Positions 35,435 through 44,314 of a DNA stretch of 64,000 bases are shown here, in pieces. The notes beneath the pieces are model-generated. The model was given only the letters and a program-made list of their open reading frames with translations. It ran no database searches and was not told the DNA's origin. Position numbers and translations under genes: made by a program. This stretch comes from Enterobacteria phage ATK47. Every line of letters begins with the position of its first letter. Position 1 is the first letter of the stretch. Location of the stretch: sequence record NC_055708.1; one strand, 5' to 3'.

Positions 35435-35509
35435 GGCCCTGTAGCTCAATGGGAGAGCTGTCAGCTCATAACTGATAGGTAGCTGGATCGAAACCAGCCA
35501 GGGTCACCA
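35435..35509 (+). tRNA. tRNA, anticodon CAT (Met, or Ile2 if lysidine-modified as in T4 tRNA-Ile)
   Basis: Cloverleaf folded by hand: acceptor GGCCCTG/CAGGGTC, D-stem GCTC/GAGC, anticodon loop CTCATAA, T-stem GCTGG/CCAGC, encoded CCA. Confidence 0.8.
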
Positions 35510-35512
35510 ATT

Positions 35513-35589
<77 letters not shown>

Positions 35590-39393: not shown

Positions 39394-39731
39394 CCGTATG
39401 GCCTTCTCTTGGTGAGAACATTCTAATTTTTATTATGAGTATTGGCATGGGATTTGCCTTTGGATTAGTTGGATTTCTTATTGACGGCGTTGTGTTAGGA
39501 TTTATAGGGAACACTGGTGGATTCACAGACCAATGGCAGGACTTACGGTATACCCAAGCCTTTGCATCCATCGCATCATTTTGTACTGTAGTCTATTTTT
39601 ACTACGATTTTATAAACCACAACAAGAAAAATAAAAAGGTTTACGCTTCTCAAATGATTAGTTATAATGAACTCCTAGCTAGACGTGAAAATGAAACAAT
39701 CGAAAACTTTATTAAGGAATGTAGAAAATGA
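39372..39731 (+). CDS. small membrane protein (119 aa) ending ENFIKECRK
   Basis: SD AAGGAA; two hydrophobic helices; conserved C-terminal tail. Confidence 0.6.
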   Translation: MQKPQLLTVWPSLGENILIFIMSIGMGFAFGLVGFLIDGVVLGFIGNTGGFTDQWQDLRYTQAFASIASFCTVVYFYYDFINHNKKNKKVYASQMISYNELLARRENETIENFIKECRK

Positions 39732-40033
39732 GTAAGATTATTGAAATTAAAGTACCAGAGTTTAATGATGCCAAATCCGCTTCAGATGCAATTTATAAAC
39801 TTCTGAATCAAGCTGAACGTATCGAAGAAGAAGCAACAAAGATCGCAGACCAATATGCCGTATCATTTTCTGTAGGTGATTATGGTAGTGGTCGTACTTA
39901 TTATCCTAAGGGTGAAATCGTATCCCAGTGGATGAAAGATGAAATTGAAAATAATGGCGGCGATGTTAAGCGTGAAGGTAATGGATACGTTATTACTGAA
40001 GGTGCTTGGGTTTCGTCTTCTGCGTTGTGCTAA
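39728..40033 (+). CDS. tandem paralogue A (101 aa), C-terminal GAWVSSSALC
   Basis: SD AAGGAA overlapping previous stop; shares YG-x-G-x-TY and GxWVxSSxxC with next two genes. Confidence 0.65.
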   Translation: MSKIIEIKVPEFNDAKSASDAIYKLLNQAERIEEEATKIADQYAVSFSVGDYGSGRTYYPKGEIVSQWMKDEIENNGGDVKREGNGYVITEGAWVSSSALC

Positions 40034-40042
40034 GGAATCATT

Positions 40043-40315
40043 ATGTCTAAAGAACAAACCGAACTGGCTGAAGCTGTAGCAAAAATCTATGCAGCTATTG
40101 AGGCTGCCAAAGAAATTGCTGATAAACAAAACACAACATTCGACTTGTATCCAGCTTATGGTATGGGTGGAACCTATCATTCACCAGGACATCTTAAAGC
40201 CGATCTTGAACGTTGTACAAAAAACGGTTATGCCGAATGGGCTGACGTTTACCAATACGACTACAACCTGAGCCTCGAAACTGGTGGTTGGGTCGCATCT
40301 TCTCACACTTGCTAA
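40043..40315 (+). CDS. tandem paralogue B (90 aa), C-terminal GGWVASSHTC
   Basis: Junction TGCTAAGGAA-N5-ATG shared with paralogue A. Confidence 0.65.
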   Translation: MSKEQTELAEAVAKIYAAIEAAKEIADKQNTTFDLYPAYGMGGTYHSPGHLKADLERCTKNGYAEWADVYQYDYNLSLETGGWVASSHTC

Positions 40316-40324
40316 GGAAACAAT

Positions 40325-40522
40325 ATGTCTCGTGAATTAGATTGTGCTGTACGTACGGCAGTAGCTGCTCTGGAAAACCTGTTCCAAATTGCAACAGAAG
40401 AACGCGAAGAAGTTACATTATGGATTGAAGATAACGCAGGTCTGAATCTCCAGGACGCGATCTCATTATCCCACAATAGTATCACTGTTCAAGGCTGGGT
40501 ATCATCTAGTTATTCTTGCTAA
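40325..40522 (+). CDS. tandem paralogue C (65 aa), C-terminal QGWVSSSYSC
   Basis: Same junction sequence and C-terminal motif as A and B. Confidence 0.6.
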   Translation: MSRELDCAVRTAVAALENLFQIATEEREEVTLWIEDNAGLNLQDAISLSHNSITVQGWVSSSYSC

Positions 40523-40852: not shown

Positions 40853-41809
40853 ATGATGTTAGTTATTGGTTCTCGTGCACTTCACTATCACGGTCTTATT
40901 GATTCTAGCGCTATTAAAAATAGTGATTGGGACTTTATTGCGGACCAAGGTTCTTGGAATGTATTCAAAAATCAAATGATGGGTGTATATGTTCACCAAG
41001 ATAACCCTGATGTCCAAGTTTTCAAATGCTTCCATAACGGACGCGAAACTCATTTTGAAGCATACATCGTTCCGGCTATCACTAACGTTCGCGAACTAGT
41101 CGGTGAACTCACTCCTGAAGATTTCACGTCTTCTTATGACCTTTTAAAATACGCCAAGAAAAATTTGACTAAAGACCGTTTGAACGGGTTTTACTGGGCA
41201 ACTCCTGAGATATGTCTTGCAATTAAGATGTCTCATCGTTTCAAGAAAAATAATCCATTCTTTTTAAAGACTATGAACCATATTCAGTATCTTCGTGGTA
41301 AAGGTGTTACACTGAACGATGAACTTACTGAAATTATGCTGAAACGCCAGAAAGAAACCTTGAATTATGCTCACCCAGTTCTTGACACTTCTAAAAGTGC
41401 GTTCTTTAAAGATGACATCTATACATATGACCATGATACTATTCATGAAGCCATTGCACTAACAGACCGTCCAGCGTATACATTTTATATGAAAGATGGT
41501 TCTGAAGTCATGACCTCACGCGAGAAGTTCGAATCATTACCAGAAATGGTCAAATTGGCCGGCGTATACGAAGAATCATGTGTACTAGCGTTAGAACGTT
41601 CTCAGATTCCTAATAACTTTGAAATCCATCCACGTGATAGTTTTATGATGGCCCTTGAAAAGGTCTGCACATCAATCACATCAGGATGGTTCCGTGAGTT
41701 CGCTTGGGAAAATTATAGCAAAGTAGTAAGTATGTACCAAAGCTTAGGACACGACGATTACGTCAAGCGTTTCAAACAAAACTTTCATATGGTAAAACCT
41801 TTCAAATAA
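40853..41809 (+). CDS. Pol-beta-fold nucleotidyltransferase-like protein (318 aa)
   Basis: N-terminal VIGSRALHYHG...NSDWDFIAD fits the hG[GS]-x(9-13)-D-x-[DE] NTase signature; rest uncharacterised. Confidence 0.45.
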   Translation: MMLVIGSRALHYHGLIDSSAIKNSDWDFIADQGSWNVFKNQMMGVYVHQDNPDVQVFKCFHNGRETHFEAYIVPAITNVRELVGELTPEDFTSSYDLLKYAKKNLTKDRLNGFYWATPEICLAIKMSHRFKKNNPFFLKTMNHIQYLRGKGVTLNDELTEIMLKRQKETLNYAHPVLDTSKSAFFKDDIYTYDHDTIHEAIALTDRPAYTFYMKDGSEVMTSREKFESLPEMVKLAGVYEESCVLALERSQIPNNFEIHPRDSFMMALEKVCTSITSGWFREFAWENYSKVVSMYQSLGHDDYVKRFKQNFHMVKPFK

Positions 41810-41822
41810 TTTCACAAAACAG

Positions 41823-41851
41823 TTTACAAGGTCTGTAGTTGTTGATACTAT
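41823..41851 (+). promoter_or_regulatory. T4-type early promoter within palindrome
   Basis: GTTTAC, 17 nt, TG-a-TACTAT; GGTCT...AGACC inverted repeat. Confidence 0.6.
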
Positions 41852-42090: not shown

Positions 42091-42120
42091 GTGTACAAAC
42101 TGATAGGACTATGTTATAGT
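42091..42120 (+). promoter_or_regulatory. T4-type early promoter within palindrome (variant -35 GTGTAC)
   Basis: GTGTAC, 18 nt, TG-t-TATAGT; ATAGGACTA...TAGTCCTAT inverted repeat. Confidence 0.6.
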
Positions 42121-42148
42121 AGTCCTATTAAAACATGAGGAGAATATT

Positions 42149-42454
42149 ATGAAATTAGGCGAAACCAACCGAATTGGTCTTTTAACAATATTTGTATCAC
42201 TTTTTTACGCAGCTCTTTCTGTTGCAGTATTACAAAAGGCTTACAGTATGGATGGTGTTCCTGGTTTTGTATTCTTATCGCCGTTTTTGCTATTCGTTGG
42301 AGCATTGTTATTATATGCCACGACTAGTTTCGACCATAACGTCTGGGTCAATTATAAATGTAAATTGTCTGAAGAAGAACACGCAGAAGCTCGTAAAAAA
42401 GCTATTGAATCTACCAATCTAGAAAATTTCATTAAAGAATGTCGAGGAAAATAA
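42149..42454 (+). CDS. small membrane protein (101 aa) ending NFIKECRGK
   Basis: SD GAGGAGA; two hydrophobic helices; conserved C-terminal tail. Confidence 0.6.
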   Translation: MKLGETNRIGLLTIFVSLFYAALSVAVLQKAYSMDGVPGFVFLSPFLLFVGALLLYATTSFDHNVWVNYKCKLSEEEHAEARKKAIESTNLENFIKECRGK

Positions 42455-42455
42455 T

Positions 42456-43142
42456 ATGAATAGTTCTAAAGTGTTTAATAGTCAAGCTCGTGCAGTAGGT
42501 GGTTTTGCTCATGCGATTAAAAATGACCAGATTAAAAACGAGCCTATGTTCTTTAATTGCGATTTGAATTTTGCTTTTGATAACGGCGGTCCAATTACTC
42601 GTAGCTTTATCCAAAATCTCCCTGACGATTGGAAAGACTCGGATGTAGTATTTGATTCACGAGTCCATATGCTGATGCCTGGTTGGTATCCTGCTATTCC
42701 TGGTTATCACCATGATGACGTACCACGCCCGGATATTCCGGTTGGTCAACATTTTATTACTGCAGGACAACCTGACTATGACAATCCTCGCTATTTGTCT
42801 GAACATATTCTTGGTCTTGTTAACGCTGATGTGTGTCCTACTCATTTTGCAACAGGAACTGCAGAGTTCAGTCAGATTCCTGATGGCGAACTTATCTATC
42901 GCCAGTGTCACAAAGAAGTCCTCGAAAAAATTGAAAAAGGTGAACTAGAGAAATGGGAAGCTCCAGATCGTACTCTTCTTCAGTTTGATTGGCAAACATG
43001 GCACACTGGTTCTCGTGCAATTAGTAATGGATGGCGTTGGTTCGGACGTGTATCTCGTAATACAGACCGAGTTAAAAAGATTACCAATGAAATTCGTGTC
43101 AATGCTCAAGTTTATCTGGAATTCCCTATGGAAGGCTGGTAA
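42456..43142 (+). CDS. putative 2OG-Fe(II) oxygenase-like protein (228 aa)
   Basis: H85-x-D87 ... H183 ... R198-x-S200 spacing fits the 2OG oxygenase facial triad plus RxS 2OG-binding motif; not verified. Confidence 0.35.
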   Translation: MNSSKVFNSQARAVGGFAHAIKNDQIKNEPMFFNCDLNFAFDNGGPITRSFIQNLPDDWKDSDVVFDSRVHMLMPGWYPAIPGYHHDDVPRPDIPVGQHFITAGQPDYDNPRYLSEHILGLVNADVCPTHFATGTAEFSQIPDGELIYRQCHKEVLEKIEKGELEKWEAPDRTLLQFDWQTWHTGSRAISNGWRWFGRVSRNTDRVKKITNEIRVNAQVYLEFPMEGW

Positions 43143-43633
43143 TGATTAACAAAACATATTGGTCTAATATAGACGATGGCAACGAAGGTATTTCGTACTA
43201 TTCAGTGGATTGGACAGGATGTCCATCCTACTTAGTGAAACGTATTTGCCAAGAATTTAAAATCGACCAGCCAGCAGGTATTATCGTGAACAGATACATT
43301 AATGGATATCAACCTATCGATGAAGTAATACGAACAACTCAAGCTGAGCTTGAAAAGTTTTTCAATAAGTGCCAATGGATAACAGGATGGATTATATTTG
43401 TACCGTCGGTATGGTTTTTCAGTACTAAGGTGAGTTCTTTCGGATTTGTTGATATTATTGCTATCTTATTAGCATCTAGTATCGTAAGTGTTGTTGGTGG
43501 CATCATTGGCGGCGGTACCGCCGCCATCATTATTAATCTTATTAAAAGTAGTTTACAAGAACATAAAGACAAGATAAAAGCCAAGAATAATGAAGTTGAA
43601 CGTTTTATTACCGAATGCAGGAATTTGAGATGA
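43142..43633 (+). CDS. membrane protein (163 aa) ending ERFITECRNLR
   Basis: C-terminal hydrophobic helices and conserved tail; ATGA overlap with neighbours. Confidence 0.6.
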   Translation: MINKTYWSNIDDGNEGISYYSVDWTGCPSYLVKRICQEFKIDQPAGIIVNRYINGYQPIDEVIRTTQAELEKFFNKCQWITGWIIFVPSVWFFSTKVSSFGFVDIIAILLASSIVSVVGGIIGGGTAAIIINLIKSSLQEHKDKIKAKNNEVERFITECRNLR

Positions 43634-43866
43634 GTATAGCAATTTACATTAAATCAGAATCATGTGATAGTTATCTGTACACATATGATAAAGATGTGTC
43701 AGAAGAAAAAATCAAAGACGACCTTAATACGGACCTTGATATGTTCTGTCCTATTGCAGATTACAAACTTGCGGTCTCTAATAGTGAAAGTCCATCTAAA
43801 GAAACGCGCATTGAAGAATTTATGTCTGAATTAATGGCCAAATCATGGGACCGAGATGATGAGTAA
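43630..43866 (+). CDS. hypothetical acidic protein (78 aa)
   Basis: ATG 43630 overlapping previous stop. Confidence 0.55.
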   Translation: MSIAIYIKSESCDSYLYTYDKDVSEEKIKDDLNTDLDMFCPIADYKLAVSNSESPSKETRIEEFMSELMAKSWDRDDE

Positions 43867-44314
43867 GAAAAATAAAGTGAAAGAGCTATCAGCCGGTATT
43901 ATTTTCCTTACCGAAGATAAAGAGTTATTCATGGGGCGTGTAACTGGTTCTCGTCCTAAAGGTGCATTAACTCATCGGTGGGATATTCCTAAAGGCCGTG
44001 TCGAACCTGGCGAATCTCCTATTGAAGCCGCTATTCGTGAATGCGAAGAAGAAACTGGGTTTACACAATATGACCCTGCCTTCCTGAAAGACCTAGGTGA
44101 ACATCATTACTCAGACAATAAGAATATTCATCTGTTCCTATATACCATCCCTGTAGAGCACGAGCAATTCAGAAACAGTGTTTGTAATTCCTATCATACA
44201 TTCCAAGACGGACGACAGATTCCTGAATTTGATGCATTCGCTTTAATTAAACCTTCTCAATGGGAATATGTAATGGGCAAATCGTTATATAAGGTGCTCA
44301 CTACCCTCCTATAA
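43856..44314 (+). CDS. nudE: Nudix hydrolase
   Basis: Nudix box GRVEPGESPIEAAIRECEEETGF; immediately upstream of lysozyme as T4 e.1. Confidence 0.85.
   Translation: MMSKKNKVKELSAGIIFLTEDKELFMGRVTGSRPKGALTHRWDIPKGRVEPGESPIEAAIRECEEETGFTQYDPAFLKDLGEHHYSDNKNIHLFLYTIPVEHEQFRNSVCNSYHTFQDGRQIPEFDAFALIKPSQWEYVMGKSLYKVLTTLL

Follow-up and report, generated by a model that had tools for sequence, protein, structure and literature searches.

The question raised by this locus is what function is served by the protein of 228 amino acids (aa) encoded in an open reading frame (ORF) that runs from ATG to TAA at positions 42456–43142 (+ strand, stop codon included) of a 64,000-nucleotide stretch of Enterobacteria phage ATK47 DNA (NC_055708.1; this entire stretch is hereinafter called the window). 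The window originates from an RB69-like coliphage of the T4 type. Enterobacteria phage ATK48 contains a sequence 100% identical to the 687-bp gene, and the identity with RB69, in which the homolog, RB69ORF132c, is annotated “hypothetical protein,” is 97.7%. The encoded protein matches PHROG 1843 (E 2e-95), a family of unknown function. A preliminary description of the locus, made from the sequence, noticed several residues spaced like the metal-binding triad and the 2-oxoglutarate (2OG) site of 2OG-dependent dioxygenases. Our analysis makes it likely that the protein represents a divergent, unclassified phage family within the Fe(II)/2OG oxygenase superfamily, with the canonical Fe(II)/2OG mechanism; as such, the family is new and unclassified within a well-known kind of enzyme.

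The residues on which the preliminary description relied, H85, H86, D87, H183, R198, V199, and S200, are all present in the protein. Among 65 relatives (31% mean column identity), the sole invariant columns are G83, H85, D87, H183, R194, R198, and W228, and this set is unchanged in the 30 most distant sequences; H86 and S200 vary. The proposed facial triad, H85/D87/H183, is thus invariant, whereas the accompanying assignment of the 2OG-binding arginine to R198-x-S fares less well, R194 being the likelier candidate. H85 and D87 (H85-H86-D87 codons at 42708–42716, + strand, as for all features below) are the proposed HxD metal ligands, located within an invariant G-W/Y-H-x-D motif on the predicted strand II of the double-stranded beta-helix (DSBH). 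The proposed distal metal ligand, H183 (codon 43002–43004), maps to the strand 182–185 (DSBH VII) and aligns, below the significance threshold, with the distal His region of the BesD, PhyH, and HalD profiles. R194 (codon 43035–43037), 11 residues downstream of H183 (His+11), maps to the strand 192–201 (DSBH VIII). The spacing H183-x10-R194-x3-R198 is identical to that of H255-x10-R266-x3-R270 in the E. coli TauD sequence. Because of its His+11 position, its sub-threshold alignment with the corresponding Arg of BesD, and its spacing matching that of TauD R266, R194 is most likely to be the residue that binds the C5-carboxylate of 2OG, rather than R198-x-S (codons 43047–43055). R198, which occupies the position of TauD R270 (His+15), is by this analogy a candidate for binding an anionic moiety of the substrate; in TauD, R270 binds the sulfonate of the substrate. 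Several other basic residues, namely, R69, H71, R91, H117, and R214, are nearly invariant. Finally, the C-terminal G227-W228 (codons 43134–43139) ends with the invariant tryptophan, which is always the last residue of the protein.

An additional line of evidence on the active site comes from five relatives of 387–482 aa (P0163, P0193, P0248, P0284, and P0296), which are tandem duplications of the family domain. The N-terminal domains of these proteins retain H85, D87, H183, R194, and R198. In each of the four tandem relatives amenable to alignment, the C-terminal copy is eroded, with the loss of one or both His ligands in three and of D87 together with R198 in the fourth; the terminal Gly-Trp is kept in three of the four. 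This erosion of the C-terminal copies implies that H85, D87, H183, R194, and R198 behave as one functional unit. The tandem forms resemble an active enzyme joined to a pseudo-enzyme, an architecture suggesting that the proteins with one domain might function as dimers. The N-terminal extensions of longer relatives were checked for informative fusions, and no Pfam domain was found in them.

The fold was predicted with AlphaFold2 from an alignment of 45 sequences, yielding a model with a mean predicted local distance difference test score (pLDDT) of 90.9 and a predicted template-modeling (TM) score of 0.88. The model consists of strands 64–73, a bridge at 85, strands 116–122 and 129–138, a helix at 147–160, and strands 165–168, 173–178, 182–185, and 192–201, an order that appears to fit strands I–VIII of a DSBH, with strand II bearing the HxD motif, strand VII bearing H183, and strand VIII bearing R194 and R198. 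Examined for the jelly-roll expected of a 2OG oxygenase, the predicted structure thus contains a DSBH core and combines the hallmarks by which membership in the superfamily is recognized, that is, this core, a conserved HxD...H triad on strands II and VII, and a basic residue on strand VIII located about 10–11 residues after the distal His (R194); H85, D87, and H183 would converge on one metal site. The top structural neighbors are all Fe(II)/2OG oxygenases, aligned over 140–163 residues with 7–15% identity, and the best matches are small-molecule PhyH-like enzymes, which, judging by the model, are the closest fold relatives of the family. Foldseek comparison with the PDB retrieved the same families, with probabilities mostly in the range of 0.9–0.99, but the matches are weak (E ~1e-3, TM 0.3–0.4). 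The matches in BFVD are family members, followed by uncharacterized viral proteins and then by weak PhyH matches.

The PhyH-like group (PF05721) includes PHYH, EctD, EasH, AusE, and proline hydroxylases along with the halogenases BesD, HalD, and SyrB2. The phage family shares with this group the DSBH core with a helix inserted between strands IV and V, the positions of the HxD...H triad, and the Arg at the distal His+11, with sequence signals against Pfam and the PDB that all remain below the thresholds. It differs from the group in its size (228 aa vs 250–300 aa) and in the presence of a long, extremely conserved loop (74–115) after the HxD region; the invariant C-terminal Gly-Trp and the essentially phage-restricted distribution also set the family apart, as do the low identity in structural alignments and the scores below the Pfam cut-off. 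The resemblance to E. coli TauD, a TauD/TfdA-type enzyme, involves the W-H-x-D metal motif in addition to the His-x10-Arg-x3-Arg spacing: an hhalign comparison superposes G-W-H85-x-D87 on N-W-H99-x-D101 of TauD, although this alignment is not significant, with a probability of just 0.3.

Sequence searches point in the same direction as the model. The only matches of the family consensus among 24,736 Pfam models are to 2OG-oxygenase models, PhyH (E 0.0059), 2OG-FeII_Oxy_5 (E 0.0083), and HalD (E 0.027), and each of these matches covers the distal-His region. Among the 65 individual members, one matches PhyH (E 0.068). The family profile retrieves from the PDB only BesD-type lysine halogenases (E 0.8), pairing H183 with the distal His and R194 with the Arg. 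Some members from Aeromonas phages are labeled “Phytanoyl-CoA dioxygenase family protein” in UniRef, so that the superfamily assignment is not new to the databases; nearly all of the annotated records that we examined are “hypothetical protein,” and one member, from a Yersinia phage, is labeled “baseplate hub subunit.” Our literature searches revealed nothing on this protein family.

Several observations weigh against the assignment. The window protein itself yields no Pfam or NCBIfam match at E ≤ 1 and none in PADLOC, and the consensus scores below the Pfam cut-offs (17.3 bits vs 22 for PhyH and 16.9 vs 27 for 2OG-FeII_Oxy_5), so that the gathering threshold of PF05721 or of a curated 2OG-oxygenase model is not reached. 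Searches of PDB sequences with the protein and two profiles produced insignificant matches only; the hhalign probability for the family profile against E. coli AlkB is 0.1, again not significant, with no AlkB homology detectable in this comparison. The lowest-confidence part of the model, region 90–110 (pLDDT 69–77), adjoins the HxD motif. Moreover, the motif alone is not beyond chance: of 5000 shuffled versions of the protein, 10.5% contain an HxD/E...H...RxS/T pattern spaced in this manner, and it is its conservation in relatives that lifts the active-site pattern above the chance level. Taken at face value, the sub-threshold scores of all 2OG-oxygenase sequence models, the moderate structural similarity, and the frequency of the pattern by chance would also fit a DSBH or cupin protein with a His-Asp-His metal site that does not depend on 2OG, such as a hydrolase, an isomerase, or a metal-binding regulator, or a protein that is not catalytic at all. 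We consider this very improbable: strand VIII carries an invariant Arg at precisely His+11, the position it has in PhyH- and TauD-type enzymes, and the invariance of the site together with its erosion in the duplicated domains argues for catalysis.

Under the mechanism typical of Fe(II)/2OG oxygenases, H85, D87, and H183 would hold Fe(II) at the mouth of the DSBH, and 2OG would chelate the iron, with its C5-carboxylate gripped by R194. Dioxygen would then drive the decarboxylation of 2OG to succinate and CO2, giving rise to an Fe(IV)-oxo species that would hydroxylate or otherwise oxidize the prime substrate. R198 and the near-invariant R69, H71, R91, H117, and R214 suggest an anionic substrate, which might be a small molecule bearing phosphate or carboxylate groups, or else a nucleotide. 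The protein is probably a cytoplasmic accessory enzyme; as for the substrate, each particular class that we considered is unlikely when taken on its own. Placement in the superfamily with named catalytic residues makes the proposal testable through mutants and 2OG turnover. Should the protein be no more than an ordinary hydroxylase with an accessory role, the outcome would be a modest one, namely, an annotation for a large family. A precedent among phages comes from T4-like cyanophages, whose 2OG-Fe(II) oxygenase and phytanoyl-CoA dioxygenase genes have been proposed to function in DNA repair or in 2OG/succinate metabolism (PMC3037559). These, too, are accessory genes of T4-like phages and appear as weak neighbors in BFVD; unlike the present family, however, they belong to different, Pfam-recognized families, and the respective BFVD matches (E from 6e-4 to 2e-2) are weak compared with those to the family’s own members.

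The family comprises 1,273 clusters at 90% identity (E ≤ 0.001) and 739 cluster representatives at 50% identity, and is found in 471 phage records in INPHARED. It is represented in Mosigvirus, Dhakavirus, and other Escherichia phages as well as in T4-like phages of Aeromonas and Klebsiella; a second subfamily is present in Tegunavirus, Winklervirus, and Certrevirus; further members come from Bacillus phages, including phage G, from Mycobacterium, Gordonia, Stenotrophomonas, and Pseudoalteromonas phages, and from siphoviruses. In bacterial and archaeal genomes, just 25 loci were detected in 185,579 species (one genome each), many of these on short contigs of metagenome-assembled genomes. The family is essentially phage-restricted, and it is among the better-conserved phage proteins of unknown function, spanning the range from a coliphage to actinophages and Bacillus phage G. 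The Stenotrophomonas phage S72 (49.8 kb, not T4-like) carries a member (L002, 4001–4687) with 69% protein identity to the coliphage copy, which points to either recent horizontal transfer or very strong constraint; the S72 gene lies near those for an adenine methyltransferase and a predicted pyrophosphohydrolase of guanosine tetraphosphate (ppGpp). In some Aeromonas phage records, namely, phage 65 (hit H59; P0132, E5DSD9/E5DSE0) and 44RR2.8t.2 (P0130), the gene appears as separate fragments (143, 86, or 73 aa); tblastn joins three pieces of such a split gene, and these cases are either frameshifted pseudogenes or sequencing errors.

Clues to the substrate were sought in the neighborhoods of the family gene. 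We analyzed 176 loci (from IMG/VR, species genomes, and phage records), in which ORFs were called and neighbors clustered, and which were grouped into 67 lineages by single linkage at 70% identity of the family protein; the lineages are phylogenetically non-independent, and the enrichment of NAMPT reported here was judged against internal controls and a literature baseline only. A NAMPT/Namat-like gene, recognized by the Pfam domains NAPRTase and NAMPT_N, lies within 6 kb of the family gene in 14 of the 67 lineages; in five lineages, it is the immediate upstream neighbor on the same strand, with a 4-nt ATGA overlap in three of these. NMNAT-Nudix genes are located nearby in nine lineages, Prs-like (Adps-like) genes in three, and Macro domains in five, so that at least one of these four kinds of genes accompanies the family gene in 17 of the 67 lineages. 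NAMPT is the most frequent neighbor family (10 lineages within four genes), followed by DNA polymerase (7) and primase-helicase (6). The pair of NAMPT and the family gene is kept while the flanks vary among lineages, and the NAMPT-linked lineages span the family, from 71% down to about 30% identity to the window protein. A case in point is the cultured Pseudoalteromonas phage H101 (family gene at L262, 4797–5453), where the gene order is ribose-phosphate pyrophosphokinase (Prs-like), HNH, nicotinamide phosphoribosyltransferase, and then the family gene. Similarly, in six IMG/VR loci (L036, L049, L070, L077, L115, and L141), a NAMPT/Namat-like gene immediately precedes the family gene, in many cases with the ATGA overlap, and a Prs-like, NMNAT-Nudix, or Macro gene is found close by. 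In the reverse direction, none of 80 NAMPT loci sampled from IMG/VR contained the family, whereas NMNAT was present in 65–71 of them (depending on the method) and a Macro domain in 19.

These neighborhoods, along with the distribution and the structural matches, bear on what the enzyme might oxidize. The NAMPT linkage, to be seen on the scale of the mere 5.4% of sequenced phages in which NARP1 and NARP2 together occur (10.1101/2024.02.11.579819), raises the prospect that the protein is an accessory of NAD+ reconstitution or a counter-defense factor acting against NAD+-depleting or ADP-ribose-based immunity. In that case, it would oxidize a nucleotide-like metabolite, such as an NAD+ breakdown product, an ADP-ribose derivative, or an immune signal, or else a host factor competing for nicotinamide or ADP-ribose. 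This possibility, which refines the assignment to the 2OG oxygenases rather than excluding it, is unlikely as it stands, yet has several observations in its favor. The pairing with NAMPT is stable despite the differing flanks; the linkage to the genes that make up NARP1 (Adps and Namat) and NARP2 (Nampt and Nmnat) is physical, in some cases down to overlapping start and stop codons, as in H101; the abundance of conserved Arg and His residues is compatible with a substrate that carries phosphate; and in the window, the Nudix hydrolase gene nudE (43856–44314, identified by library matches and the RB69 annotation, according to which the product is active on ADP-ribose and NADH) is located three genes downstream. 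However, nudE, the sole NAD- or ADP-ribose-related neighbor in the lineage of the window, occupies the same position in T4, where the family gene is absent. Furthermore, 50 of the 67 lineages, including that of the window, where no NAMPT gene adjoins, lack these NAD+-reconstitution and Macro genes within 6 kb; the lineages are not independent; accessory genes cluster in hyperplastic regions anyway; and the papers that we consulted on NARP1, RyR, and aRES make no mention of such an oxygenase gene. The family is not a described component of NARP1 or NARP2, and its absence from the 80 sampled NAMPT loci suggests that it is not a regular one. The NAD+ link is therefore best treated as a lead worth testing and not as a conclusion. 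NAD+ metabolism is a main front of the conflict between phages and bacteria, and the repeated, sometimes translationally coupled location behind NAMPT/Namat offers a concrete place to seek the substrate; interest in the family would grow markedly should a functional connection to NAD+ reconstitution or counter-defense be demonstrated. A still more specific version appears distinctly unlikely: here, the family would be a new oxidative counter-defense enzyme whose target derives from ADP-ribose or nicotinamide (for example, an immune signal, a dead-end product of NAD+ breakdown, or an ADP-ribosyl adduct) and is either destroyed or converted. If this is true, such an enzyme would feed NARP1/NARP2 or disarm NAD+-based immunity. 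To our knowledge, no oxygenase is known in such an NAD+-based counter-defense role.

The preliminary description had instead pointed to nucleic-acid bases or host proteins as potential targets and suggested that the enzyme would matter in a lineage with modified cytosines. The latter connection is not borne out. T4 is the classic hydroxymethylcytosine phage, yet the family gene is absent at the syntenic site of T4, where e.2 abuts e.3, and the RB69 annotation lists no T4 counterpart for ORF132c, although its neighbors have one. The family is also present in Mycobacterium, Gordonia, Bacillus, Stenotrophomonas, and Pseudoalteromonas phages, its range takes in many phages that have no known cytosine modification, and we know of no DNA modification common to phages of Actinobacteria, Bacillus, Stenotrophomonas, and Pseudoalteromonas. 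No TET/JBP enzymes are among the 60 listed structural matches, and no association with a modified-base pathway was found. More broadly, an oxygenase acting on nucleic acids, be it AlkB-like repair or demethylation of DNA or RNA or hydroxylation of bases connected with cytosine modification, could draw on the RtcB RNA ligase genes located 2–7 genes upstream in Gordonia phage Smoothie (L003) and Mycobacterium phage Estes (L004), on some neighborhoods that include RNA ligase as well as DNA ligase and dCMP deaminase, as read from sequence, on denV annotated nearby in RB69 and in H101, and on the conserved basic residues, which could bind the phosphate backbone. Nevertheless, considering the AlkB comparison, the predominance of small-molecule PhyH-like enzymes among the top structural matches, the absence of the gene from the T4 site, and the fact that repair genes neighbor the family in fewer lineages than NAMPT does, we rate this possibility as decidedly improbable. 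It is even harder to argue for a protein hydroxylase that would contribute to host takeover by modifying a universally conserved protein of the host, for instance, a translation factor or one of the ribosomal proteins. The extreme conservation across unrelated hosts, exemplified by the 69% identity between the proteins of the coliphage and the 50-kb Stenotrophomonas phage, fits a target common to all bacteria, and the upstream promoter-like site described below would be in line with such a role, but structural matches of that kind rank lower than the small-molecule PhyH-like enzymes, neither a peptide-binding feature nor a partner was identified, and the neighborhoods give no pointer to translation, which makes this scenario highly unlikely. 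As a separate observation, the family gene in Estes is also located near tRNA genes and genes for a dual-specificity phosphatase, a DprA-like protein, and a metallophosphoesterase.

In the window, the oxygenase-like gene is embedded in a block of genes on the + strand in the order ORF134c (DUF7275/DUF7277), a small ORF, ORF133c, ORF132c, e.2, ORF130c, nudE, e (lysozyme), internal head protein, and denV. A Shine-Dalgarno-like GAGGA (42444–42448) is located 7 nt 5′ of the ATG, as read directly from the sequence. The stop codon of the upstream neighbor ORF133c (42149–42454; 101 aa) ends 1 nt before the ATG of the oxygenase-like gene, and the TAA of the latter overlaps the ATG of the downstream neighbor e.2 (43142–43633; 163 aa) in the sequence TAATG; the 1-nt gap and the overlap fit co-transcription and translational coupling within the same-strand block. 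A promoter-like sequence, GTTTACA-17-TACTAT (41823–41851), which we take to resemble T4 early promoters, matches the consensus and could be the site from which the oxygenase-like gene, which is probably expressed early, is transcribed. In agreement with the preliminary description of the gene as lying between two membrane proteins, both flanking ORFs encode two hydrophobic segments (Kyte-Doolittle scan), and e.2 is annotated as a membrane protein in RB69. A general coupling of the oxygenase-like protein to these membrane proteins was considered and rejected: the arrangement is found in T4-like lineages only, with unrelated neighbors in the others.

The two flanking proteins are themselves related. 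ORF133c and e.2 share the C-terminal tail ...FI(K/T)ECR, both match PHROG 2203, and ORF133c is weakly similar to the C-terminal part of e.2; T4 e.2 (102 aa) matches just the N-terminal 46 aa of the 163-aa e.2 of the window. This likeness of the tails together with the short T4 match implies that the RB69-type e.2 contains an extra membrane module that is also found as a separate gene, ORF133c. Between another promoter-like site (42092–42120) and the start of ORF133c lies a perfect 7-bp inverted repeat, AGGACTA ... TAGTCCT (42104–42128), which might form a hairpin in the RNA or serve as a regulatory site. The ORF at 40853–41809, located two genes upstream of the oxygenase-like gene, encodes a 318-aa protein with DUF7277 (E 3e-27) and DUF7275 (E 3e-79) domains that belongs to PHROG 2141. 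Three consecutive small ORFs of 101, 90, and 65 aa (39728–40522) have a similar tail in common, G-x-W-V-S/A-S-S-x-x-C, and look like tandem paralogs in the region of RB69 ORF136c–137c. Finally, about 7 kb upstream, two adjacent tRNA genes, tRNA-Met(CAT) and tRNA-Arg(TCT) (35435–35589), are the counterpart of the tRNA region that precedes e.8 in T4.

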